A stretch of 29,465 nucleotides of DNA, taken from a virus. The notes beneath the pieces are model-generated. The model had not been told where the DNA came from. It searched no databases and was given only the letters and a program-made list of their open reading frames with translations. Positions 5,396 through 29,465 of this stretch are shown here, piece by piece; position 1 is the stretch's first letter; every line of letters starts with the position of its first letter. The position numbers and the translations under genes are program-made. The stretch is taken from IMG/VR virus record IMGVR_UViG_3300023281_000789, positions 1 through 29,465 of that record. One strand, written 5' to 3'.

Positions 5396-6028
5396 ATGGA
5401 AAAGAAAGATTTACCAATAGTATACTTAGAAATCGATGTGGAGGATATGGAGAGTGGTGTAACCGCTATTTCATTTGTAGATTCACCAGCCACAGAAGTA
5501 GAATGGATGACATTCAAAGATAATAAACCTCAACAATTTGAAAAGAAGGATGTAGAGAGAATGATAACTGGACCTGTTATGTTGGCGGAGACACCTATAT
5601 ACAGATATAGTCCTGTTATTGGGGATTACTTTGTTAAATTCAGTGAGAAGACTGTATTCGATATGATGAAGAAATACTTCAAAGAGAATAGAATACATAC
5701 AGTTAACGAACAACACAATAGTAAGAGAAAGGTGAAGGAAGTATATATGGTAGAATCATATATAATTAATGAAAGAACTAAAAGTGAAGTATTTAATGAT
5801 TTAAATGACGGAACGTGGATGGCTTCATTCTTTGTAGAGGATGAGGATTATTGGAATGAGGTAGTGATGAATGGAGACTTTAAAGGATTTTCATTAGAAG
5901 GTATGTTCACAGAAAAGATGGAGGATGAGATAATTGAAGAAGTATATTCTAAGATAGAAAAGATTATGGAACACCCAGATGAGGACTATGTATTTAATGA
6001 AATAAAAAGAGTTTTAAAGATTAGTTAA
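5396..6028 (+). CDS. XkdF-like prohead protease / head maturation protein
   Basis: ISFVDSPATEVEWMTFK, ITGPVML, FSEKTVFDMMKKYF and VNEQHN...VYMVESYII match the pattern I associate with the XkdF (Peptidase_S78_2) family. It sits upstream of the scaffold and capsid genes. Confidence 0.55.
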   Translation: MEKKDLPIVYLEIDVEDMESGVTAISFVDSPATEVEWMTFKDNKPQQFEKKDVERMITGPVMLAETPIYRYSPVIGDYFVKFSEKTVFDMMKKYFKENRIHTVNEQHNSKRKVKEVYMVESYIINERTKSEVFNDLNDGTWMASFFVEDEDYWNEVVMNGDFKGFSLEGMFTEKMEDEIIEEVYSKIEKIMEHPDEDYVFNEIKRVLKIS

Positions 6029-6029
6029 A

Positions 6030-6458
6030 ATGAATAAATTTATGATTGGATTGTTTACTTCAGTGTTTGTTTTCATAGCACCCGTAATACCCTTAATATA
6101 CTTAGTACTATGTTTTATATTAATGGATACAATGGTAGGTGTTATGTCCTCATACAAATTAGGAATTGAAATAAAGAGTAGGAAACTCTCAAGGGTGGTA
6201 TCTAAACTTACTATATACTCAATGACAGTATTGTTGATTTATGGTTTAGATATATTAGTATTATCAACGTGGATTGAGACACATATGTTAGTCACCAAAG
6301 TAGGTGCTGGTGTATTGTGTTTTATAGAAGGATTCTCAATTGATGAGAATATAAGAAAATGTAATAACAATAAAGGGGTAGGATTCTACTTCAGTAAAGT
6401 GTTTGATGTTGTTAAAAGAGTTAAAGAGAAATATAACGAAATTATTAACGGAAAATAA
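6030..6458 (+). CDS. Holin (phage_holin_4_1-like)
   Basis: 142 aa with 3-4 hydrophobic helices. LMDTMVGVMSSYKLG..IKSRKLSRVVSKL and CFIEGFSIDENIRK resemble the D..tG / S.k...K / E..SI.EN signature of the TcdE/LL-H-type holin family. Confidence 0.6.
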   Translation: MNKFMIGLFTSVFVFIAPVIPLIYLVLCFILMDTMVGVMSSYKLGIEIKSRKLSRVVSKLTIYSMTVLLIYGLDILVLSTWIETHMLVTKVGAGVLCFIEGFSIDENIRKCNNNKGVGFYFSKVFDVVKRVKEKYNEIINGK

Positions 6459-7343: not shown

Positions 7344-8273
7344 ATGAGTTTAAATGTAGCAGCTTTAACAACTTACACAGACGAGTTGAAAATGGAGCTT
7401 ATCAAAAAGTCAGTTCTACAAGGTAGAACAACTCAGTTAATTAGTGTACAACCTGATATCAAATCAGCAGCGTCCATTAATATAATTGATTCTACGTTGT
7501 CTCTACAAGCGGGTGCTTGTGGTTGGAACGAAGCGGGTTCAACCGCATTGACACAGAGAGACCTTTCTGTATGTCCTATTAAGATTAACGAATCTATTTG
7601 TTTAGATACGTTAGAGTCTTATTACACTCAAAAGATGATGCAACCTGGTTCTTACAACGAGGAGATTCCTTTTGAACAAATGTTTTCTGAAGAGAAAGCA
7701 GGTAAAATCAACGCAGTAATCGATGATATCATCTGGAAAGGTGATACAGTATCGGGTACAGGTAACCTAGCACTATGTGATGGTTTCTTAAAACTTACTG
7801 ATGATTTGGCTGGTTCAGTTGTAACTGGTAACACATCTTCAGCTACTGCTATCAACGCAGCGAACATCATCGACTTAGTTGACGATATGGTTGAAGCTAT
7901 TCCATCAGACATTATTGACGCTGATGACTTACACATTTTTATGGGTTATGAAGTATATAGATTATACGCTAAAGCATTGAGAGACGCTAACCTATTCCAC
8001 TACACTGGAGCGGAAGACCAAGGACAAGATTTCTCTCAAATGGTACCTGGTACAAATGTAAGAGCAATCGCAGTTAGAGGTTTGAATGGAACTAATAGAA
8101 TGATTCTTTCAAGAGCAGCGAATCTTTACTTCGGTACAGATTTACTAAATGACTCTGAGGAATTCAGAATCTTCTATTCAGAAGACAATGATGAAGTTAG
8201 ATTCAGAGCGAAATGGAAAATGGGTGTACAATACGCATTTCCAGAATTCGTTGTAGACTTTACGTTAGTATAA
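7344..8273 (+). CDS. Major capsid protein
   Basis: 309 aa (XkdG/P22-coat size class). It follows the protease and scaffold genes and is followed by a perfect 9-bp hairpin. Codon usage and composition fit an abundant structural protein. Confidence 0.7.
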   Translation: MSLNVAALTTYTDELKMELIKKSVLQGRTTQLISVQPDIKSAASINIIDSTLSLQAGACGWNEAGSTALTQRDLSVCPIKINESICLDTLESYYTQKMMQPGSYNEEIPFEQMFSEEKAGKINAVIDDIIWKGDTVSGTGNLALCDGFLKLTDDLAGSVVTGNTSSATAINAANIIDLVDDMVEAIPSDIIDADDLHIFMGYEVYRLYAKALRDANLFHYTGAEDQGQDFSQMVPGTNVRAIAVRGLNGTNRMILSRAANLYFGTDLLNDSEEFRIFYSEDNDEVRFRAKWKMGVQYAFPEFVVDFTLV

Positions 8274-9366: not shown

Positions 9367-10443
9367 ATGGAAAAGGAAATAAAAAATAAGATTAAAATAT
9401 TTAACTTTAACGAAGCGTATGTCGCTCCAGAGTATAAATATAACAACAAAAGACACTTAATTGAATGGGGGAAGGATAATCAGTACCCTATATACCTATT
9501 GAACCTATATAACGCATATGGTTCTACTACTCATAAGAGTATTGTCAATAGAAAGGTTAAGTTAACAAGTGGACAAGGATGGGAAGATGTAAATAATCCT
9601 CAATTGGAGAAGTTTATGAAAGACAATAAACTCAATAAAGAGGTTAGAAAGGTATCTTTAGACTACGAATTGTACAATGGTTTTTGTTTAGAGGTTATAT
9701 ATAACAGAGAAGGTACTGAGATTAGTTCTTTAAAACACGTTCCTTTTCATAAAGTAAGGATAGGTATTCCAAATGACGAAATCAACTTTAACCATTATTG
9801 GTATTCTGATGATTGGAGTCAGTATAAAAAGAAAGGATATGAACCTTGTCTATACAGAGACTACAATCCATACCATACAACTGGTAAACAATTATACTAT
9901 CATAGTGAATATAACCCTCAAACTGATGGTTTATACCCAATTCCAGGTTACTCCACATCTATGAACTTCATTGAAATGGATTATGAGGTAGGTAAATTTC
10001 ACTTAAATCAAGTTAAACAAGGTTACGCACCATCGTTTATCTTAAACTTCGCCACAGGTATTCCTACAGAAGAAGAACAAGATGGTTTTTATAAAGAATT
10101 TAAACGTAATTATAGTGGTACGGATAACGCTGGTAAGATTATACTTACATATTCTGAGGGTGTAGAAGGAAAACCTGAGTTAATACCTATTCAATTAAAC
10201 GATTCTGATGATAGATTTATTCTATTACAAGAGATGATTGAAAGAAACATAGTTATGGGGGCAGAGATACCACCACAATTGGTAGTTCTTACACCTGGTA
10301 AGTTAGGTTCATCAGAAGAAAGAAACGAATTACAACAAGAATTTCAACAATCTTATATCTCACCTCGTCAAACAGTAATTGAAGAGGTATATAATGAGAT
10401 ATTAGGTACGGAAGAAATGATACTAAAAAAATACGAACAATAA
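9367..10443 (+). CDS. Portal protein (small, PBSX-type)
   Basis: WGKDNQYPIYLLNLYNAYGSTTHKSIVNRKVKLTSGQG, LDYELYNGFCLEVIYN, YPIPGYSTSMNFIEMDYE and FKRNYSGTDNAGKI follow the conserved blocks I associate with Phage_portal/PBSX-family portals. Confidence 0.6.
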   Translation: MEKEIKNKIKIFNFNEAYVAPEYKYNNKRHLIEWGKDNQYPIYLLNLYNAYGSTTHKSIVNRKVKLTSGQGWEDVNNPQLEKFMKDNKLNKEVRKVSLDYELYNGFCLEVIYNREGTEISSLKHVPFHKVRIGIPNDEINFNHYWYSDDWSQYKKKGYEPCLYRDYNPYHTTGKQLYYHSEYNPQTDGLYPIPGYSTSMNFIEMDYEVGKFHLNQVKQGYAPSFILNFATGIPTEEEQDGFYKEFKRNYSGTDNAGKIILTYSEGVEGKPELIPIQLNDSDDRFILLQEMIERNIVMGAEIPPQLVVLTPGKLGSSEERNELQQEFQQSYISPRQTVIEEVYNEILGTEEMILKKYEQ

Positions 10444-11018
10444 TGAGTAGAGTTAAGTTTATCAGTACAACCTTTTTAAAGGAACACAGTACATTAAGTA
10501 GAAATATTGATGATGATATCCTAATTCCCTATATCTATAGAGCACAGGACATCAATCTTCAACAAATATTAGGGACAACCTTTTACAATAGATTGGAACA
10601 AGGTGTAGTCAATAACGATTTAAATTCAGATGAAGAAGATTTGTTAAGAAATTACATCCAACAACTATTGGTAGAATGGACAACGTATTACGCAATACCT
10701 AATATCAATATGAAATTCACAAATAAGTCAGTTACACAGGACTCTTCTGAATTCGGTACACCATCATCGTTAGATGATATTAAGTATCTTAGACAAAACG
10801 TCAGAGATATGGCTGAGTTCTATTCTAAGAGGTTAACTACTTATATGTGTGACTTTGGTAATCAGAAGTTTCCACAATACGCTAATCCAGATTCTAACGA
10901 AAACTTAAGTAAAAGTGGTAGAGCGTATTTCAATGGTATATATATTCCAAATAGAACTCCAAATACTTATGGTATTAGAGTATATGACGACCCATCAGAT
11001 GATTGTCCAAACTGTTAA
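10443..11018 (+). CDS. Hypothetical virion protein (possible head-tail connector)
   Basis: ATGA-coupled to the portal gene. N-terminus FLKEHSTLSRNIDDDILIPYIYRAQDINLQQILGTTFY resembles gp6-like connector N-termini. The functional call is weak. Confidence 0.45.
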   Translation: MSRVKFISTTFLKEHSTLSRNIDDDILIPYIYRAQDINLQQILGTTFYNRLEQGVVNNDLNSDEEDLLRNYIQQLLVEWTTYYAIPNINMKFTNKSVTQDSSEFGTPSSLDDIKYLRQNVRDMAEFYSKRLTTYMCDFGNQKFPQYANPDSNENLSKSGRAYFNGIYIPNRTPNTYGIRVYDDPSDDCPNC

Positions 11019-11020
11019 TT

Positions 11021-11368
11021 ATGATACATCCATATTTAGAGTTTAAAGAATCGAAAATTCACCGTAATGGTGTATTTACACAAGGGGATTTAAAGATAGG
11101 GGAAAGAATAGAAAGGAGTTATTATACGGTATTGGATGTTGAATTAGAAAATTTGGATAGTATAACAAAACAGTATGTATTTAGTTATCCAAAACAAGGA
11201 GATAAATTAAGTTTGGTATGGGGGTTTGGTTCAATATATAACCACTCTAACCATCCAAATGTAGATTGGTACTATGATGGTGATGTTATAGTATGGGAAT
11301 GTATAAAAAATATTAATAAGGGTGAGGAATTAACCCACAATTATAAGAATACACAAAGAAAAAGATAG
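11021..11368 (+). CDS. Minimal SET-domain protein (putative lysine methyltransferase)
   Basis: 115 aa. HRNGVFTQGDLKIGERI (GxG/FA + GE block), GFGSIYNHSNHPNV (NHSxxPN) and KGEELTHNY (ELxxxY) occur in SET order and spacing. The architecture is close to the 119-aa PBCV-1 vSET (GFGAIFNHSKDPNA, GEEITISY, as I recall it). I prefer ATG 11021, just after the upstream stop, over the track's TTG 11003. Confidence 0.8.
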   Translation: MIHPYLEFKESKIHRNGVFTQGDLKIGERIERSYYTVLDVELENLDSITKQYVFSYPKQGDKLSLVWGFGSIYNHSNHPNVDWYYDGDVIVWECIKNINKGEELTHNYKNTQRKR

Positions 11369-11370
11369 AT

Positions 11371-12066
11371 ATGCCAGTAAGACATAAAAAAGACGGAGAT
11401 AAGTGTTACGCTCAATGGGGTAACCAACAGAAGTATTATTACCCTTGTGATTCTAAGATATCAAAAGAGAACGCAGAACGTAAAGCGGAGAAACAAGGTA
11501 GAATCATAGAGAGTAGAATTGGTGATAAGTATTCCAATGATACTTGTTGTACCGTAGATGAACATAAAGATTTGGTTGTTAATTATCTGGAAGAAAATGA
11601 TGTATGTATTAGTTTTGAGGAATTAGGTATTTCAGAAGAAGATGTATATAATTCAGAATACTTCTCAGAAGTCACTGAACAAGATATTGTAGACTTTGAG
11701 AAATTTGGTAAGGAAAACTTTAAACTGATTAAATTATATAGATACGTCTCTAATAAATATGGTTCGTCTAATATCGGACCTAACACTCGTCCATTCTGTA
11801 GAACACTCGCTTTGAGAACTTCCGCAGCGATGATGACGTGGGAATCCATAACCTATATGAATGGTATGAATCCTGGATTTGGTAAAGGTGGAGGAGACAG
11901 TTATTCGGTTTTCAATTATAGAGGTGGCAAGAATTGTGTTCATAAATGGGTTAAATATTTATACGACCCTCAAACAAATAATTTGGTTAAGGATGTCAAA
12001 CAACCCAATCAACAGACAGATTCTAATGGTGGAGTACCGGGAGCACCTAAACCTAAAAAACAATAA
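11371..12066 (+). CDS. MuF-like minor head / head-morphogenesis protein (candidate)
   Basis: The C-terminal half, GPNTRPFCRTLALRT...YRGGKNCVHKW, resembles the D.rtR..C..L.G ... H.nCrC signature of SPP1 gp7/Mu F domains. It lies in the portal neighbourhood. Confidence 0.4.
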   Translation: MPVRHKKDGDKCYAQWGNQQKYYYPCDSKISKENAERKAEKQGRIIESRIGDKYSNDTCCTVDEHKDLVVNYLEENDVCISFEELGISEEDVYNSEYFSEVTEQDIVDFEKFGKENFKLIKLYRYVSNKYGSSNIGPNTRPFCRTLALRTSAAMMTWESITYMNGMNPGFGKGGGDSYSVFNYRGGKNCVHKWVKYLYDPQTNNLVKDVKQPNQQTDSNGGVPGAPKPKKQ

Positions 12067-12090: not shown

Positions 12091-12456
12091 ATGAAAAGTA
12101 ATTTTGACAGTGATGTATTCACACAAACAGGAGGTCCAGAAGAAGGTATCGTAAAAATACAATATGATACTGATACAAGACTAATAAACGATATGTCAGT
12201 CGTAATACCTTATTTGGTAACTGACTATGGTTATACCGCATTATACGATTGGAGTACTTATGTATCCAACGCTAACCCACCATTTGACTTAGTTGGTAAA
12301 GCAATAAAGGAAATGGGTAGATGGTTTCGAGAAGATGGATTATGTGATGATTCACCAAAGGTATGTACACCATCTCGTAACAGACAAATGATTTTAACTG
12401 ATTTATGTAATGACGTAAATTATCAGTTTTATTTAGATGAAGCGAGAAACGCTTAA
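12091..12456 (+). CDS. Hypothetical protein
   Basis: 121-aa ORF and last gene before the structured region 12468-12511. No motif recognised. Confidence 0.55.
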   Translation: MKSNFDSDVFTQTGGPEEGIVKIQYDTDTRLINDMSVVIPYLVTDYGYTALYDWSTYVSNANPPFDLVGKAIKEMGRWFREDGLCDDSPKVCTPSRNRQMILTDLCNDVNYQFYLDEARNA

Positions 12457-12562: not shown

Positions 12563-13222
12563 ATGGGAAGAACAACTTCACAATTTGACTTTTTTAAGAA
12601 AGTCTGTTTAGATGAAAACGGATTGTTATGTGGTATACAAGACGTTGTAGATGGATTACAGAATATTACATCAGTAGTCAGTGGTAATACGGTTGCCATA
12701 CAAAATATAGACATTAACGTACAATCTATCAATGAAGAGATGGTTGAGGTTAATTCTAATATTGAGGAATTAAACGGAATAGTAGGTGAGATACAAACTT
12801 GTGTATGTCCTCCAGAACCACCAACACCACCTACTCCAACCCCTACACCTACTCCAACTCCAAAAAAAAAGTGTTGTTGTAAGGTTCGTAAATGTACACC
12901 TCGTCCACCGAGATGTCCTCAGAATACAAAGAGTTGGGGAGGATGGACAATAGTAGTAGATAGAAGGTATCCCGATAAATACTATCCCAAACAAAAATAT
13001 ACCCCACCACCATCACCGAGATTATATCCACAATTACAAATACCTTATGGGTTTGAAAATGTAGATGGAACGTGGACTGATAGAGTACCATCAAAATATA
13101 TTGATAGTAACGGTAAGGTGATTACTGTCAGAGCCAAAGGATGGGTAGGACAACCAAATAAGTCACAAGCGTATAAACAAAAACCTGGAGTTACATATGT
13201 TAATTGGACACCAGTTAGGTAA
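12563..13222 (+). CDS. Fibre-like protein with coiled coil, PT linker, Cys cluster and basic aromatic C-domain
   Basis: 219 aa. The N-terminal QFDFFKKVCLDENGLL motif is shared with ORFs 25488 and 25283. Heptad-like repeats are followed by PPEPPTPPTPTPTPTPTP, KKKCCCKVRKCTPRPPRCP and a W/Y/P/K-rich domain. Hairpins flank the gene on both sides. Confidence 0.6.
   Translation: MGRTTSQFDFFKKVCLDENGLLCGIQDVVDGLQNITSVVSGNTVAIQNIDINVQSINEEMVEVNSNIEELNGIVGEIQTCVCPPEPPTPPTPTPTPTPTPKKKCCCKVRKCTPRPPRCPQNTKSWGGWTIVVDRRYPDKYYPKQKYTPPPSPRLYPQLQIPYGFENVDGTWTDRVPSKYIDSNGKVITVRAKGWVGQPNKSQAYKQKPGVTYVNWTPVR
12862..12870 (+). other. In-frame A9 homopolymer inside the fibre-like gene
   Basis: The tract c-aaaaaaaaa-g encodes (P)KKK between the PT linker and the Cys cluster. 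One extra A gives ...KKKVLL-stop. One fewer A gives a ~30-aa alternative tail. Confidence 0.9.
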
Positions 13223-13541: not shown

Positions 13542-13615
13542 TGGAAGAGTTCACTAGATTTTTGGTATTCATAGGGATTCTGTTAATCATATTGATGTTC
13601 AGAAGAAAGGATTAG
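13541..13615 (+). CDS. 24-aa single-pass membrane peptide (below the ORF-track cutoff)
   Basis: Its ATG overlaps the upstream stop (TAATG). It encodes MEEFTRFLVFIGILLIILMFRRKD, a hydrophobic core with a basic tail. Its stop overlaps the stop of the convergent gene 13612-14604. Confidence 0.4.
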   Translation: MEEFTRFLVFIGILLIILMFRRKD

Positions 13616-14604
13616 TATTCTAATTTGAATTCTATATCAGTTGTCATCTTAACAATATTGAGAACTCTCTCTAAATCTGACTCTTTAAAGATAACTGAGT
13701 CGTGCATTGGTAGGAAGTCGATACTATTCATTCTTAACATCTGATATATGTCAGTCATTAATTTCGTCTCACACAACTGATAAATGTAATGAACCATCTT
13801 ATACCCATACTTCTCTTTAAAAGTCCTTAGAGAACTCCAAAAGTTACTTACATCCATATCTCTTAGTTGTTGTCTTTGGTGACAGAATACTTGTTTGAGT
13901 AATTCTTCTTTATTTAAACCAAATTCCCTCTCCATTTGTCCATAGAAATCGTTATATAAATCAATATCATAATTTCTTGATATACCTTCAATCTTATTTT
14001 TTGATAATAACTGGAATATAGAGAATTTAATATCTAATGATTTAGTTCTCTCACCACCAATCTTTAATCTTCTTCTATCATTCTTAGACATTTGTGAATA
14101 AGGGCCGTAGTATCTACCTCTTTTGTATTTGATATCAGTACCAATAGACTCACCATCCAAAGTAGTTCTACTTAGAGTTTCTTCAATCATCTCTGTTAAC
14201 CATTGGTATTCATCTTTTGTTTTAATTTTATTATATAATGAATTAAGATATCTATTTTCTTGTAATGTTTTACTCATCTTACTATCAGATACAGTCTTAT
14301 CAATCTCAAAAATGTTTGGTGAAGACACATATTGTTGTGTACCATCTTCAAATCTAATTTTGATAGTAGAGGATTGTTTTTTCATTTTAATGAATCCATC
14401 ATCTAATAAAACGTTTGTGAAGTCTTTGGCTTTATCTGTAAACGCTAACCTTAGAACTCTTTGAGATACTTTACCCTTCATCTTTGTAATTAGGTAAGAA
14501 TACGTTTCTAATACTTGTTCGTAATTGATACGAGGTGATTTGATTGGTTCACCTGTTTTAGAAAGGTAGGTGTGTCCTTTTAGTTTTTCAATAGTTTTTT
14601 CCAT
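13612..14604 (-). CDS. Only minus-strand gene: replication/transcription-initiation candidate with polymerase-like motifs
   Basis: 330 aa. KRGRYYGP (aa 161-168), LDIKFSIFQLLS (190-201) and FLPMHDSVIF (297-306) occur in the order of the T/DxxGR, A and C motifs of Pol A / T7-like polymerases. It is divergent from the early operon across a region holding two class I elements. Coding is confident; function is not. Confidence 0.75.
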   Translation of the reverse strand: MEKTIEKLKGHTYLSKTGEPIKSPRINYEQVLETYSYLITKMKGKVSQRVLRLAFTDKAKDFTNVLLDDGFIKMKKQSSTIKIRFEDGTQQYVSSPNIFEIDKTVSDSKMSKTLQENRYLNSLYNKIKTKDEYQWLTEMIEETLSRTTLDGESIGTDIKYKRGRYYGPYSQMSKNDRRRLKIGGERTKSLDIKFSIFQLLSKNKIEGISRNYDIDLYNDFYGQMEREFGLNKEELLKQVFCHQRQQLRDMDVSNFWSSLRTFKEKYGYKMVHYIYQLCETKLMTDIYQMLRMNSIDFLPMHDSVIFKESDLERVLNIVKMTTDIEFKLEY

Positions 14605-14700
14605 TTTGTTTGTATTTTAAATTATGTTATATTAATAAATATACAGTAATTTTCAAAAGTTGTCAATATTATAAAAAAAGTTTTATTTTTTTTTGATTAG

Positions 14701-14718
14701 AATCCTACACACTATAAT
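14701..14718 (+). promoter_or_regulatory. Class I element AATCCTACACACTATAAT (plus orientation, faces the early operon)
   Basis: Exact 18-mer shared with 21014-21031, 25220-25237 and rc(1094-1111). Confidence 0.65.
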
Positions 14719-14778
14719 AGTAAGTAAGTACAAATACATAATAATATATATAAATTATATTATTGTTTCTATCCCTTC

Positions 14779-14796
14779 ATTATAATGTGTAGGAAA
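14779..14796 (-). promoter_or_regulatory. Class I element variant TTTCCTACACATTATAAT (minus orientation, faces gene 13612-14604)
   Basis: 15/18 match to the core. The downstream leader, GAAGGGATAGAAACAATAAT, parallels GAATAGGTAGAAACATAAAT after the 21014 copy. Confidence 0.55.
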
Positions 14797-14829
14797 AAAC
14801 AAAACCAAATACTGAATATTTATATATAT

Positions 14830-14979
14830 ATGAGATTAGGAGATATAATAGAAAAAATAACAATCATTACAGGTATTAAGAGATTCACCAATTGGGTAAC
14901 AGGTAATTCCTGTGGTTGTGATAACAGAAAAGAAAAACTAAATAGATTATGGGACAGAGTAAGAGGCAAGAAGAATTAA
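14830..14979 (+). CDS. Small hypothetical protein (CGC motif)
   Basis: MRLGDIIEKITIITGIKRFTNWVTGNSCGCDNRKEKLNRLW. I prefer ATG 14830 because the track start at 14785 lies inside class I element 14779-14796. Confidence 0.5.
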   Translation: MRLGDIIEKITIITGIKRFTNWVTGNSCGCDNRKEKLNRLWDRVRGKKN

Positions 14980-15137
14980 GAAAGGATACCAATATCATTA
15001 AATTCACACTGATATCTAAAAAGATTATTCCCAGTGACAAAGAATATATCAAATTGATAGAGGATGAATTAGAGACATTGAAGATGAACTTCGAAAAAAT
15101 AACAAAAGATTTAAATGAGATGAGAGGAAAAATATGA
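14949..15137 (+). CDS. Hypothetical small protein, ATGA-coupled to the sigma-like gene
   Basis: 62-aa charged helical ORF. Its stop overlaps ATG 15134 (ATGA). It overlaps the upstream ORF by 31 nt, so the start is uncertain. Confidence 0.4.
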   Translation: MGQSKRQEELRKDTNIIKFTLISKKIIPSDKEYIKLIEDELETLKMNFEKITKDLNEMRGKI

Positions 15138-15850
15138 GAGATGAAGAACTATTAGGACATATCAAAGAAAGAATAACAAAGAATCCTTACTACTACCAAA
15201 TAAAAGATGAGACAGATAGACAAACTATCATCAACGATTTATTTATTAATGTATGGGAAAAGATTCAAAAAGGTGAGATGATACCTAAGTGGGAAGAAAT
15301 AAAGGGTTATGTATTTATATCTGGAAGAAATAATTGTTTAAAGTATCTAAGAGATAAACAAAGACATACCAATACGTCCGTAGACATAGATATAAGTGAT
15401 TCTAACAACTTTAGATACGATGATGGTACAGATACTATGGAATACTTCAATAGACAAGAGGAGATGTTAGAATTCTTAAATAATAATATTGACGAAGGTA
15501 TAGATAAAGTATTATTTGATTTAAGAAGAGAAGGTATGACTCTACCAGAGATATCAGAATACCTCAATATGGACTTATATCAATTGGAAAAGATTAACCG
15601 TACTGTTATAAGATATCTAAGAAGCAGATGGTTTTATCCAGATTGGAAGAATAGAAAAGGTAAATGGGGTGATGGTAATGATTTTTTCTATAGAGTTTTT
15701 GATACATATAAGAATACGGAAAAAGATTATACTGTAAAAGCAAGAATATGTGAAGATATAGATATCAAACAGAACTCTATTAATAACCATATAGGCAACG
15801 GTAAACTAATAAAAGGAAGATATTATGTAAAAATTATAAAAAAAAAGTAA
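15134..15850 (+). CDS. Sigma-70/ECF-like factor with a C-terminal NUMOD1-like extension
   Basis: Region-2-like DLFINVWEKIQ...GYVFISGRNNCLKYLRDKQRH. Region-4-like VLFDLRREGMTLPEISEYLNMDLYQLEKINRTVIRYLRS. The extra ~70 aa, YRVFD...YTVKARICEDIDIKQNSINNHIGNGKLIKGRYYVK, resemble NUMOD1/IENR1 HTH modules of homing endonucleases. Confidence 0.6.
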   Translation: MRDEELLGHIKERITKNPYYYQIKDETDRQTIINDLFINVWEKIQKGEMIPKWEEIKGYVFISGRNNCLKYLRDKQRHTNTSVDIDISDSNNFRYDDGTDTMEYFNRQEEMLEFLNNNIDEGIDKVLFDLRREGMTLPEISEYLNMDLYQLEKINRTVIRYLRSRWFYPDWKNRKGKWGDGNDFFYRVFDTYKNTEKDYTVKARICEDIDIKQNSINNHIGNGKLIKGRYYVKIIKKK

Positions 15851-15860
15851 AATAAATCAG

Positions 15861-15886
15861 ACTTTTAAAAATTTCTACATATTTAT
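15861..15886 (+). promoter_or_regulatory. Class II element copy a (ACTTTTAAAAATTTCTACATATTTAT)
   Basis: 23/26 identical to 15975-16000. It is followed by TATAAT (15886-15891) and lies between the sigma gene stop and terminator 15918-15953. Confidence 0.5.
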
Positions 15887-15917
15887 ATAATGAGTTTAAT
15901 AAATTTATGTTAAGAGA

Positions 15918-15953
15918 CCCCTAAGATTTCCCATTTTTCTTAGGGGTTTTGTT
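15918..15953 (+). terminator. Rho-independent terminator
   Basis: cccctaag-13 nt-cttagggg followed by ttttgtt. Confidence 0.8.
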
Positions 15954-15974
15954 ATTAATTTAAAGTTTTTTTGA

Positions 15975-16000
15975 ACTTTTGGAAATTACTACATATTTAT
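15975..16000 (+). promoter_or_regulatory. Class II element copy b (ACTTTTGGAAATTACTACATATTTAT)
   Basis: Contains TTTG, a Bacteroidota -33-like element. It is followed by TAGTATAAT and lies 35 nt upstream of ATG 16035. Confidence 0.5.
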
Positions 16001-17843: not shown

Positions 17844-18956
17844 ATGATTATAGAAGAGATTATAGAGTATAAAGATGATTTAGTAAGATGGTATGATTCA
17901 ATAGAGAATATCGTTGATTATTTCATTTATAAAAAAGAAGAAAAGGTAGAGAACCTAAATAACTTACATATTGGTAAAGATATGTTTAATGATTGGACAA
18001 TGGAACCAAAGGATATGGATATTAGTATAGAAGTAACTGATGGTAGTTTTCATAACCTACATACCCAAACAGTATGTTCAATGCCATTGGAATCACAAAT
18101 AGGTAGACAAGTTAATATAGGGATAAAAGAAAACAAAACTGGTAAATGGTTAGGGTTTACGAGAATAGCGTCACCAATATTAAGTATCAGACCTCGTAAT
18201 GAGATGTTTGGACAACAAGTAGATAATAAATTAGTTAATCAACATATGGTGAATGGATGTCAAATCATTCCTGTACAACCATTTGGATATAATTGTTTAG
18301 GAGGTAAGTTAATTGGTTTAATAAGTAATTCACACGAAGTAAGAGATATCTACAATAAGAAGTATAATACTAATGTTATACATTGGGAAACTACTTCACT
18401 ATATGGTGATATAAAGAACGTAAGTCAATACGATGGATTAAAACCATTTATTAGATATATAGGAATGACAGAGAGTAATAACTTTCTATTCCCTACCAAT
18501 AAGGTATATTATCCACTCTTAGACGCTTTCAGAGAATATTATGGTATGGAGGAATGGGATGGACGTTTAGTTAGTCCTAAAGGAAGTGGTCCTAAGATGA
18601 GAGAGTTTACAAAAGTGATATCAATTATAAAGTCAAATCTTAAACAATGGGATGAAGAACAATATAATGAGTTCCATAAATTCACAAAAGAGAAAATGAA
18701 GTCATTTACCAAAAAACGTTTCTATTACTCTAATTATGGATATGAGAATGTTATAGAACATATAACAAAAGGTGAAGAACTAAGAGAAGGACAGAACTTC
18801 CATAAACATAAATTAGATTATATAATAGAATGGTGGAAGAAGAAAGCACAGAAGAGATGGGAGAAACTAAATAGAGAAGGTAGAATAAGAACTGAATTAG
18901 AGATATATACCAAAGATACGGTAATGAATAAAGATAGAAACGATATAATAAGATAA
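17844..18956 (+). CDS. GNAT-like / DUF4338-like protein (candidate)
   Basis: 370 aa. IIPVQPFGYNCLGGKLIGLISNSHEVRDIYNKKYNTNVIHWETTSLYGD...YDGLKPFIRYIGMTES resembles, from memory, the P.v..NL.S..L ... Y ... ETFVd ... Y.a.nW...G.T.G core of DUF4338 (DruA-type) proteins. Confidence 0.35.
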   Translation: MIIEEIIEYKDDLVRWYDSIENIVDYFIYKKEEKVENLNNLHIGKDMFNDWTMEPKDMDISIEVTDGSFHNLHTQTVCSMPLESQIGRQVNIGIKENKTGKWLGFTRIASPILSIRPRNEMFGQQVDNKLVNQHMVNGCQIIPVQPFGYNCLGGKLIGLISNSHEVRDIYNKKYNTNVIHWETTSLYGDIKNVSQYDGLKPFIRYIGMTESNNFLFPTNKVYYPLLDAFREYYGMEEWDGRLVSPKGSGPKMREFTKVISIIKSNLKQWDEEQYNEFHKFTKEKMKSFTKKRFYYSNYGYENVIEHITKGEELREGQNFHKHKLDYIIEWWKKKAQKRWEKLNREGRIRTELEIYTKDTVMNKDRNDIIR

Positions 18957-27427: not shown

Positions 27428-29465
27428 ATGAATAAGTATATTATAGAAGCCAACGGAAAACCCTTAGATACCTTTGATGATTTTAATATATCCTTAAACT
27501 ATCAAATTGAGGATATTATGGATATCACCAAAAGGAAGACTAACTTTTCTAAAACGATAGAATTACCAGGTACAAAGAATAATAATCTATTCTTCCAACA
27601 GATATTTGATGTCAACATTGACAATATAAACTTCAACCCCAATATAAGGATACCAGCCAACATCAGAATAGGGGATAATGATATTCTGAATGGTAACCTT
27701 CAATTGATAAATATAATCTCTGAGAACGAAGATGTTAGATATGAGGTTGTGGTAGCGGGTACACTTAAAGATATTATAAATACATTTCAAGATTATTATA
27801 TTTCTGATTTGGATTATAGTGAATACAATCACGAAAGAAATCGACAGAACATTATAGATAGTTGGACTCATTTATTACAGATAAATGGATTAGAACAACA
27901 AACAGAAATTGGTAAGGGTTATGTATACCCTTATATAGTTACAGGTGGTAATGATGATATCACTGATAATTGGTACGTCTATGACGCTTATCCAGCGGTG
28001 TACGTTAAAGACATTATGGATAGGATATTTAGGTTCTCAGACTTCACCTATACGTCTGATTTCTTAGACTCAGATTATTTTAAAAGTTTGATTATACCCT
28101 TTTCAGAAAATAAACTACAAATTAATAAGGAAGAACAGGAAGAGAGAAAGGTATTTGTTGGTGTAGATGGTTCATTACCAGAATTTGATGGTGGTAGTAC
28201 AGGTAGTGGGTATAGTGATTTATTTGGTAATAAAGTAATTCTGTGGGGACAACCTTGGTTTTACAATAATTCTCTTAATTATAGATTCAGACTTAATAGA
28301 GATAGTGGTACTGTAGGTGATATTGAATTTCAAGATTTATCAGACCAATGGGATGAATTGGCTTTCACATCTCAGAATCAAGGTTATTACGATGTTAGTT
28401 TGGACGCTCAGTTGGTACCTAAATGGTTCTCACAACAAGGACAAGATATAAGATGGAAAGGTGATGGTAATGTAGAGTATATATATTATCTCTTAAAGGT
28501 ACCAGCGAATGGTTCTCCATCATCAATAATAGATAGTTCACAAGGTGACTACGACCCAGCGAATGGAGTATATCCTACACAACTATATCAACCCTCAAAT
28601 TCAATTGATAACTCGTCACCTTGGTATGATACTGACGCCAATTTAAATATTGGTTTATCAGCGGAGAATCTATGGATGGAAGAAGGTGATAGACTTGTGG
28701 TTAGATTTGGTGTACGTTGGCCTGATGATGTCAGATGGGATATTGATGGGATTATTACAGGACAAAATGAGAAAATGAGGTTACGTATGACGTTAGCGGA
28801 GTCTGTTAATGGTACCCCTACCAAATTAGAAGTTACTACGGCGTCTAACACATCCTATGGTAATGAAGATATCAATATAAATCAGATTGTACCTAAGATA
28901 AAGATGAAAGATTTCTTTATGAATATTACAAAGATGTTTAACCTCATCATACAAGACAATCCAAACGTACCAAACGATTTGATTATTGAACCGAGGGATG
29001 ATTTCTTTAACAGTCGTAATAAGGTAAAAGATTGGACACAGATATTAGATAACGATTCAGAGATTAAAATCACTCCTATGAGTGAATTGGACGCTAATAC
29101 ATATAGATATAAATACAAAAAAGATACTGATTTCTTCAATGAGAAGTATTTGAGTGAGACTGGAAAGGAATATGGTGAAGTTAAGATAGATGTAATTAAC
29201 GATTTCTCTGAAAAAACTGTAAAGAATGAGTTGATATTCTCCCCTACACCAAATTCAGAGTTGTTTATTAAGGATAGAGTGGCTCCGTTTTTTGTAGATA
29301 TACAGAATCAGAACAATTTATCACCAAAGAAAGTCAATCATAGGATACTTTTCTATAGTGGTTTATTGGATTGTGAGACATTTACACTCGCTGATGATGA
29401 GAATACTACCACAGAGTTGACAACGTTGACTCAATACCCTTATTGTGGTATGTATAATTCTCCTT
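27428..29465 (+). CDS. 5' part of the wrap-around ~1012-aa tail/baseplate-fibre protein (continues at 1..1056)
   Basis: I translated the frame from ATG 27428 to the window end by hand and found no stop. It is absent from the ORF track only because it has no stop inside the window. The N-terminus (NISLNYQIEDIMDITKRKTNFSKTIELPGTKNN) is reminiscent of distal-tail/baseplate proteins. Confidence 0.8.
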   Translation, partial: MNKYIIEANGKPLDTFDDFNISLNYQIEDIMDITKRKTNFSKTIELPGTKNNNLFFQQIFDVNIDNINFNPNIRIPANIRIGDNDILNGNLQLINIISENEDVRYEVVVAGTLKDIINTFQDYYISDLDYSEYNHERNRQNIIDSWTHLLQINGLEQQTEIGKGYVYPYIVTGGNDDITDNWYVYDAYPAVYVKDIMDRIFRFSDFTYTSDFLDSDYFKSLIIPFSENKLQINKEEQEERKVFVGVDGSLPEFDGGSTGSGYSDLFGNKVILWGQPWFYNNSLNYRFRLNRDSGTVGDIEFQDLSDQWDELAFTSQNQGYYDVSLDAQLVPKWFSQQGQDIRWKGDGNVEYIYYLLKVPANGSPSSIIDSSQGDYDPANGVYPTQLYQPSNSIDNSSPWYDTDANLNIGLSAENLWMEEGDRLVVRFGVRWPDDVRWDIDGIITGQNEKMRLRMTLAESVNGTPTKLEVTTASNTSYGNEDININQIVPKIKMKDFFMNITKMFNLIIQDNPNVPNDLIIEPRDDFFNSRNKVKDWTQILDNDSEIKITPMSELDANTYRYKYKKDTDFFNEKYLSETGKEYGEVKIDVINDFSEKTVKNELIFSPTPNSELFIKDRVAPFFVDIQNQNNLSPKKVNHRILFYSGLLDCETFTLADDENTTTELTTLTQYPYCGMYNSP
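29411..29465. repeat. Terminal direct repeat, copy 2 (identical to 1-55)
   Basis: Exact 55-nt match to the window start. This is typical of an assembler overlap on a circular or circularly permuted molecule. Confidence 0.95.

Follow-up and report, generated by a model that had tools for sequence, protein, structure and literature searches.

Protein lysine methylation by SET-domain enzymes is a central regulatory mechanism in eukaryotes, and in SET7/9 and other members of the family an aromatic C-terminal flank helps to close the lysine channel and the cofactor pocket. To our knowledge, vSET (A612L) of Paramecium bursaria chlorella virus 1 is the only well-studied viral SET protein; its target is a histone of the host, and it methylates K27 of histone H3, acting as a dimer. 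Four motifs, I to IV, have been defined in the SET domain, of which motifs III and IV together form a pseudoknot (PMC3585878). Prokaryotes also carry SET proteins. Go1-SET of Methanosarcina mazei methylates the archaeal chromatin protein MC1-alpha (PMC3980110), from which it follows that a prokaryote-borne SET protein can act on nucleoid-type proteins; the same source, a 2014 review of bacterial SET proteins, makes no mention of phages (PMC3980110). Here we analyse a SET-domain gene located at positions 11021-11368 of a 29,465-nucleotide stretch of phage DNA, IMG/VR virus record IMGVR_UViG_3300023281_000789, the whole of which is called the window below.

We argue that this gene, which lies in the head operon of the phage, encodes a non-essential, probably active SET lysine methyltransferase that would be expressed late together with the head proteins and would be directed at a host protein in preference to a dedicated virion component. 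Taken as a whole, we give this reading about an even chance of being right.

Results

A minimal SET-domain protein

The open reading frame (ORF) runs on the + strand from an ATG at 11021 to a TAG stop codon at 11366-11368 and encodes 115 amino acids; a TTG-started variant of 121 amino acids, beginning at 11003, appears in the mechanical list of ORFs and overlaps the upstream gene. The Pfam SET profile (PF00856) matched the 115-amino-acid protein with a score of 40.8 bits (cutoff 22.4, E=3.2e-10) over positions 3-105 of its 105, and the matched domain spans residues 17-109, the protein being a SET core only, with neither pre-SET nor post-SET domains. In phmmer searches of Protein Data Bank (PDB) sequences it matched Set7 of S. 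pombe (5h6z, E=1.1e-5) and vSET (1n3j, E=6.4e-4). This resemblance to SET proteins is far beyond chance. The GC content of the gene, and that of its third codon positions, are in line with those of the phage.

An AlphaFold2 model, built on a 120-sequence alignment, had a mean predicted local distance difference test score (pLDDT) of 88 and a predicted template modelling score of 0.80. When the model was compared with the PDB by Foldseek, 315 matches were obtained at E<=0.001, the best 50 of which were all SET-domain structures; they were led by vSET (3kma_A, template modelling score (TM) 0.79/0.86), Set7 (5h6z, TM ~0.8) and the Plasmodium protein PFL0690c. At the level of the predicted model, the SET beta-fold is therefore present, in which motifs III and IV would form the pseudoknot. 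A first reading of this DNA from its letters (the sequence-only reading) had proposed a 115-amino-acid ORF at 11021-11368 with 2-nt gaps on either side, encoding a minimal SET protein of vSET-like size and layout. The coordinates, motifs and gaps that it quoted were verified, and both the PF00856 match, well above its cutoff, and the confident predicted fold, with vSET as the best match, agree with its assignment.

The features of the gene are the following.

11021-11368, +, SET-domain protein gene, 115 amino acids and TAG stop; nearest folds vSET and Set7, under purifying selection in relatives
11063-11077, +, motif I region R15-N16-G17-V18-F19; G17 and F19 invariant, Gly at position 15 at least 90% conserved in the family
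11174-11176, +, motif II Tyr, Y52; invariant in the 17- and 120-sequence alignments, pairs with the Tyr of vSET 'EDYLFS'
11222-11263, +, motif III GFGSIYNHSNHPNV (N74-H75-S76...P79-N80), predicted to form one strand of the pseudoknot; G68, Y73, N74, H75 and N80 invariant
11267-11269, +, W83; Tyr at least 90% conserved at this position in the 120-sequence alignment
11321-11344, +, motif IV GEELTHNY, ending in the putative active-site Tyr, Y108; G101, E103 and Y108 invariant, Y108 pairs with the last Tyr of vSET 'EEITISY'
11345-11365, +, short basic tail KNTQRKR, 7 residues after Y108, replacing the aromatic flank of relatives

Twelve residues, defined as invariant in a 17-sequence alignment of phage, bacterial and vSET sequences, are all kept in the window protein: G17, F19, E31, Y52, F54, G68, N74, H75, N80, G101, E103 and Y108. 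Judged by the published motif definitions (PMC3585878), motifs II (Y52), III (NHSxxPN, here Y73-N74-H75-S76-N77-H78-P79-N80) and IV (ELxxxY, here E102-E103-L104-T-H-N-Y108) read as intact. The motifs cited in the sequence-only reading were borne out at residues 15-19 (RNGVF), 28-29 (GE), 68-81 (motif III) and 101-108 (GEELTHNY).

Two positions depart from the family pattern. The GxG of motif I reads R15-N16-G17 in the window allele, in which the second, invariant Gly is retained and the first is replaced by Arg (codon 11063-11065); it reads G-N-G in the alleles of three related loci, L007, L063 and L152, those of L007 and L152 being 97% identical to the window allele, and N-R-G in that of another, L001. 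W83 is restricted to the allele type shared by the window, L007, L063 and L152. The site is probably a Phe/Tyr-switch position, which would be equivalent to Y305 of SET7/9 and would set the degree of methylation.

The C-terminal tail

Throughout the clade of phages to which the window belongs, the tail that follows Y108 is 7-9 amino acids long and has no Y-W. Elsewhere the aromatic flank is present: vSET has GDDYW, most other viral SET proteins have G-x-x-Y-W within tails of 12-15 amino acids, and the bacterial relatives have a 17-amino-acid tail with W...WF (NGDW...VWF, nearly invariant). The claim that the layout of the protein matches that of vSET thus held for its size and core motifs and failed for the C-terminal G-x-x-Y-W flank, which the clade does not have. 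The flank is an accessory feature of many SET enzymes and lies outside the Pfam domain.

The last ~12-20 nt of the SET ORF are similar to the intergenic spacer in relatives that have no SET gene. This suggests that part of the K/R-rich tail is encoded by what is otherwise the A-rich leader of the following gene, and that the junction is where the ancestral flank disappeared. Without the flank, SET activity could be weak or dependent on a partner, and its absence is our main reason against taking activity for granted. In the vSET chain 3kma_A, 105 of the 119 residues are accounted for and the tail is disordered in the crystals, so that a short tail need not abolish the fold.

Presence, absence and exchange of the SET gene

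In the window the SET gene stands between a gene encoding a DUF6712 protein, whose stop codon ends at 11018, and a gene encoding a portal-associated protein, whose ATG is at 11371, all on the same strand and with 2 nt on each side. Only loci in which both flanking genes could be read were counted in assessing its distribution. It occupies this slot in seven lineages (the window, L001/L002, L004, L005/L006, L007, L063-L066 and L152), with gaps of 2-15 nt, and is absent from five (L054/L158, L055, L062, L150 and L153), in which the DUF6712 gene is followed directly by the next gene. L055 and L005 are 97.7% identical over the 2.67 kb upstream, with 97% and 98% protein identity in portal and DUF6712, respectively. 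In L055, 311 nt and 20 nt of the SET ORF are missing. What survives is the opening two bases of its start codon, the internal hexamer TACATA and its final 17 nt with the stop codon, and we read this locus as a recent deletion of the gene.

The SET gene is an accessory gene, showing presence and absence at a fixed site between near-identical genomes as morons do. Because relatives that have no SET gene include the near-isogenic L055, its product appears dispensable for making particles, and its absence from about half of the close relatives argues against an essential role in morphogenesis.

Where present, the gene is evolving faster than its neighbours and is under purifying selection, the ratio of non-synonymous to synonymous substitution rates (dN/dS) being 0.13-0.40 for SET and 0.05-0.22 for portal and DUF6712. 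Its alleles fall into three types: A (the window, L007, L063 and L152, with 90-97% mutual identity), B (L001, 62% identical to the window) and C (L004 and L005, 49-53% identical to the window). The window and L001 are 96% identical in DUF6712 and 91% in portal, but only 62% in SET; conversely, the window and L007 are 97% identical in SET and 79-80% in DUF6712. The same reversal is seen in the DNA, with 85-93% identity in the flanks and 66-73% in SET for L001, as compared with 71-80% in the flanks and 94-99% in SET for L007, and in sliding-window comparisons the switch in identity falls at the borders of the SET gene. From this pattern we infer that the gene is exchanged among related phages as an allele cassette.

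The phage, its probable host and wider relatives of the SET protein

The 55 bases at one end of the window (positions 1-55) recur without a mismatch at the other (29411-29465). Such terminal repetition marks a circularly closed assembly and indicates a complete genome of ~29.4 kb, that of a small phage of marine type. Almost all of its genes are on the + strand. The genomes of its relatives are of similar size, 28.0-29.5 kb overall (29,532 bp; 29,150 bp for L152, a Tara Oceans scaffold; ~28 kb), and no DNA-level relative was found among 50,697 GenBank phage records. The terminase is 55% identical to terminases of Flavobacterium psychrophilum phages, and a search with the DUF6712 protein returned only Nonlabens (Flavobacteriaceae) phages; because these, its closest cultivated relatives, infect Flavobacteriia, the host is probably a member of the Flavobacteriia as well. 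For such a host, the sequence-only reading was reasonable in excluding a histone as the substrate. The exclusion is too absolute as a general rule, as a few bacteria encode histone-fold proteins.

A profile search with the SET family gave 4,996 cluster representatives at E<=0.001, and a word-indexed search gave more than 6,700 relatives, mostly proteins of 127-130 amino acids from Chitinophagales and other Bacteroidota with 28-38% identity. Among 185,579 genomes, one per species, the best match was at most 42% identical; matches came from many phyla, and the best 80 loci included none labelled Flavobacteriales. A recent capture from a cellular genome was rejected on these grounds and because the composition of the gene is fully ameliorated.

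The SET proteins nearest to those of the clade (L008, L009 and L012; 45-52% identical) are encoded on IMG/VR viral contigs of 68-254 kb, where it has a PhoH-like gene next to it and a late sigma factor of the T4 type nearby, and lies outside structural modules. In all, small SET proteins were found on 41 IMG/VR contigs and in one 735-kb megaphage. This megaphage (LR756501), deposited as two records, was the only GenBank phage with a SET match in tblastn searches. The best match in a library of viral structures was A0A6J5L8Y2 (TM 0.85, 33% identical), annotated 'SET domain containing protein [uncultured Caudovirales phage]'.

In three of four bacterial loci (L003, L050 and L053, on Chitinophagales chromosomes), a gene for a DbpA-type DEAD-box helicase and a DPBB_1 gene precede the SET gene, an order that the cellular family may have conserved. 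As a source of hints to the substrate, these neighbourhoods were too uninformative, the order being seen in the three Chitinophagales loci and not in the fourth. Charge and isoelectric point (pI) were also considered as clues to the substrate and did not discriminate.

Expression, activity and target

In scans for expression signals, the only two + strand terminator-like sites lay at 5453 and 14550, neither of them near the SET gene; sigma-70-like sites were not enriched, and no -33/-7 promoter of the Bacteroidota type was found nearby, although such scans are crude for Bacteroidota, whose promoters a sigma-70 scan covers poorly. A classic moron with its own promoter and terminator was rejected, as no such signals bracket the gene and the gaps to its neighbours are only 2 nt. 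Tight packing on the same strand and the lack of signals of its own make co-expression with the head genes a fair inference, in line with the late expression proposed from the sequence-only reading, and the SET protein would thus be made late together with the head proteins.

In the reading that we favour, a minimal stand-alone SET-fold enzyme would move a methyl group from S-adenosylmethionine (SAM) to a lysine of a non-histone protein. Its gene is an accessory one outside the core assembly machinery, inserted between the DUF6712 and portal-associated genes of the head operon, and, with no signals of its own, would be expressed late alongside the head proteins. It can be deleted without loss of the phage and is swapped between related phages as an allele cassette, and the target of the enzyme would be a cellular protein of the host, modified in the infected cell. 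Catalytic activity is probable, because the 12 invariant residues, including N74-H75, Y52 and Y108, have been kept in alleles that are only 49-62% identical, and because the SET profile, the predicted fold and dN/dS point the same way. A host-cell target is somewhat more likely than a virion protein, since the gene can be lost and does not co-vary with the flanking structural genes, and since its nearest relatives reside in unrelated large phages outside structural modules while deeper relatives are cellular chromosomal SET proteins.

Several points weigh against this reading. Activity, substrate and expression are all deduced from sequence, and the promoter and terminator scans have the limits given above. 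The whole clade lacks the aromatic C-terminal flank found after the SET domain of other enzymes, and in the window allele Arg replaces the first of the two glycines of motif I and Trp stands in for Tyr83. Late expression would be an unusual time to act on the host. Finally, a virion-related role would account just as well for the fixed position in the head operon.

That position could also reflect an action on the phage itself. As assembly proceeds, the SET protein might methylate structural proteins of the phage (capsid, portal, DUF6712 or the downstream protein), as a non-essential tuning of particle stability, adsorption or recognition by host sensors; the gene always occupies the same slot between the DUF6712 and portal-associated genes in seven lineages, and with no signals of its own its product would share both the timing and the site of head-protein synthesis. 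Nevertheless, the gene is dispensable, five relatives doing without it, one of them near-isogenic to a carrier. Its alleles follow a different pattern from those of the structural genes on either side, members of the same SET subfamily are found away from structural modules in large, unrelated phages, and the literature searched yielded no case of tailed-phage virions being methylated on lysine by an enzyme. We consider a virion target unlikely, though a serious contender.

Late synthesis alongside the head proteins could also serve the following infection. The SET protein would in that case be packaged in the capsid, ejected with the DNA and free to methylate nucleoid, translation or defence proteins of the host as the next infection starts, by analogy with Alt, the head-packaged ADP-ribosyltransferase of T4. 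The neighbouring gene encodes a portal-associated protein whose counterpart in Nonlabens phage P12024L is fused to the portal; variable, cargo-like content is concentrated in this slot (SET, a ~100-amino-acid module and an extra 121-amino-acid ORF, described below); and the SET protein is small, close to neutral and basic in its tail. However, it is a bare SET core that aligns end to end with cellular homologues and has no extra N- or C-terminal segment for capsid targeting or docking, and the downstream gene is not demonstrably a MuF gene. Delivery as an ejected effector therefore seems to us distinctly improbable.

The loss of the aromatic flank throughout the clade raises a different doubt, namely that the protein no longer has efficient methyltransferase activity and serves as a module for binding SAM or a peptide; it might, for instance, sequester the cofactor or bind to a partner that contains lysine. 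The G15R change in motif I of the window allele, the presence of W83 in place of Tyr and the ease with which the gene is lost would all fit. They have to be set against the persistence, under purifying selection, of family-invariant active-site residues in alleles 49-62% identical, the retention of G-x-G in sister alleles, and the disordered tail of vSET, which indicates that a short tail is compatible with the fold. We think it improbable that the enzyme has been reduced to a binding module.

Equally improbable, in our estimate, is a more speculative proposal in which the protein is a tool of counter-defence or takeover, either loaded into the capsid beside the portal and ejected on entry to methylate nucleoid or immune proteins of the host or methylating the portal or capsid of the phage itself against host sensors. 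The loss of the flank would then leave an open site suited to lysines of folded proteins, and allele shuffling and gene loss would reflect an arms race.

Delivery of SET into the capsid by fusion to the downstream head protein, through programmed frameshifting or readthrough, was rejected as extremely unlikely: there is an A-rich run before the SET stop codon and the next gene is in the -1 frame, open across the junction, in three lineages (the window, L001 and L004), but in two others (L005 and L007) it is in the SET frame, so that readthrough would be needed and the frame relation is not conserved, no canonical slippery heptamer is held in common, and A-rich spacers, which also occur in relatives that have no SET gene, are expected before start codons in this genome.

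Neighbouring genes in the head block

The genes of the head block that bear on the setting of SET are listed here.

9367-10443, +, portal; Pfam Phage_portal 54 bits, PHROG portal families
10443-11018, +, upstream neighbour, DUF6712 protein of 191 amino acids; PF20459, 79.6 bits
11371-12066, +, downstream neighbour, portal-associated head-module protein of 231 amino acids; homology to the P12024L portal and weak similarity to the C-terminal part of a PHROG portal family

The DUF6712 gene follows the portal gene in all relatives and in P12024L, where it stands before tail-fibre-like genes. A profile search of PDB sequences with DUF6712 gave no meaningful match and the literature searched made no mention of it, so that identification as a known connector was rejected. 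Its position is compatible with a role in head-tail joining, and no more than that. The description of the upstream gene as connector-like is accordingly left with one hint, the gene order after the portal as in P12024L, for what is an uncharacterized family.

Residues 123-206 of the downstream protein, its conserved C-terminal domain, are 28% identical to residues 440-516 of the 560-amino-acid P12024L portal (E=2e-7), whose N-terminal 350 residues align with the window portal. The downstream protein and three orthologues had no Pfam match even at E<=5. Phage_Mu_F (PF04233) did not match it, while the portal-MuF fusion of the haloarchaeal virus HRTV-28, used as a control, scored 42.9 bits; there was no NCBIfam match, and the search of PDB sequences gave no evidence of MuF. 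Its 12 homologues are also devoid of Pfam domains. The AlphaFold2 model had a pLDDT of 68, and its only hits in a BFVD fold search were weak ones, to XkdF-domain fusions (TM ~0.35). Assignment as MuF was rejected, since none of these sources (Pfam, NCBIfam, PDB sequences, homologues, and model with fold search) pointed to it. We regard the product as a portal-associated head-module protein; what speaks for the MuF-like label that it had been given is the homology to the C-terminal part of the P12024L portal and an HRTV-28-type module in relatives, and in the face of the missing profile and fold matches the label is unproven.

That module, of ~100 amino acids (SYDDYPKAASENA...RANQL...TIARMASFKRHQ...WGG.EG), is internal to the orthologues in L001 (gene 10360-11361), L004, L005 and L063 and absent from the 231-amino-acid protein of the window. 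It is 45% identical to a segment of the HRTV-28 (L049) portal-MuF fusion, and in other phages it occurs within genes annotated as prohead protease or capsid protein. Further along, at 12091-12456, a 121-amino-acid ORF with no family match is found in the window and in L152 and is absent from the otherwise syntenic L001. In L063, a gene of 195 amino acids (1977-2564) with a weak NUMOD3 match lies between portal and DUF6712, which suggests a homing endonuclease; in its place L064-L066 have a gap and a shortened DUF6712 call.

Other features of the genome

The remaining structural and packaging genes that could be assigned are these.

5396-6028, XkdF-type prohead protease
6030-6458, holin-family gene; PF05105, 35.7 bits
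6506-7309, scaffold-like gene
7344-8273, major-capsid-like protein
19458 and 19819, small and large terminase, respectively

The holin-family gene is thus located inside the head module, between the XkdF-type prohead protease and the scaffold-like gene. At 12563-13222, a protein of 219 amino acids, conserved in L001, L055 and L152 and with no family match, has a Pro/Thr repeat, PPEPPTPPTPTPTPTPTP, and after it a stretch rich in Cys and Lys/Arg. The 370-amino-acid protein encoded at 17844-18956 matched Pfam DruA (Druantia defence protein A) with 42.7 bits and a PHROG of unassigned function at E=3e-86; a defence-system domain of this kind is odd in the replication/early region of a phage. The sole sizeable gene on the minus strand (13612-14604, 330 amino acids, no family match) borders the stretch of lowest GC content (~27%, 14000-16000) and is followed by a sigma-factor-like gene at 15134-15850. 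This area is probably a regulatory or early-region boundary.

Discussion

Phage SET genes are already annotated in databases, as in the UniProt entry for an uncultured Caudovirales phage named above. We found no paper studying a tailed-phage SET enzyme in the literature searched, and nothing relevant on lysine-methylated phage virions. The protein described here is a SET-domain protein of a known kind with two variant features, the loss of the C-terminal flank and an optional, cassette-like life in the head operon.

The locus offers a natural experiment, in which complete genomes of ~28-29.5 kb carry, at one site, three divergent SET alleles or several clean variants that have no SET gene. Such natural pairs with and without the gene open the role of a phage lysine methyltransferase to direct testing. 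A host target would represent a new kind of post-translational manipulation of the host in phage biology. A virion target would amount to enzymatic lysine methylation of a tailed-phage particle, the first known to us.

Among described proteins, those of uncultured tailed phages (A0A6J5L8Y2, L008, L009, L012 and LR756501) are likewise small phage-encoded SET proteins. They differ in lying beside PhoH and in glycosyltransferase-rich regions, within genomes of 68-254 kb or larger, and most keep a tail of 12-15 amino acids with Y or Y-W. The stand-alone SET proteins of ~127-130 amino acids of Bacteroidota (Chitinophagales, Saprospiraceae) belong to the same family and length class, with thousands of members and 28-38% full-length identity, and come from the phylum of the probable host; they are, however, chromosomal and acidic (median pI 4.9, as compared with 6.4-7.8 for the phage alleles) and keep the W...WF flank.

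Of the characterized enzymes, vSET (1n3j/3kma) is similarly a virus-encoded, stand-alone core of ~115-119 amino acids, and motifs II-IV correspond residue for residue. With 27% identity (E=6e-4) it is not an orthologue of the phage protein, to which phage and bacterial SET proteins are nearest; it belongs to a virus of eukaryotes, has the GDDYW that the phage protein lacks, and acts on a histone, a target that should be absent from the probable host of the phage. Set7 of S. pombe (5h6z) ranks first by sequence among solved structures and second by fold and has a motif III of the 'GLGSMFNHDRHPNV' type, whereas it is a eukaryotic histone methyltransferase of 169 amino acids with extra C-terminal residues and 26% identity. 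Go1-SET and the SET effectors of Chlamydia, Legionella and Bacillus anthracis resemble the favoured reading of the phage protein in being prokaryotic SET proteins with demonstrated non-canonical or cross-kingdom substrates, and differ from it in being cellular or secreted-effector proteins and not the products of phage genes.

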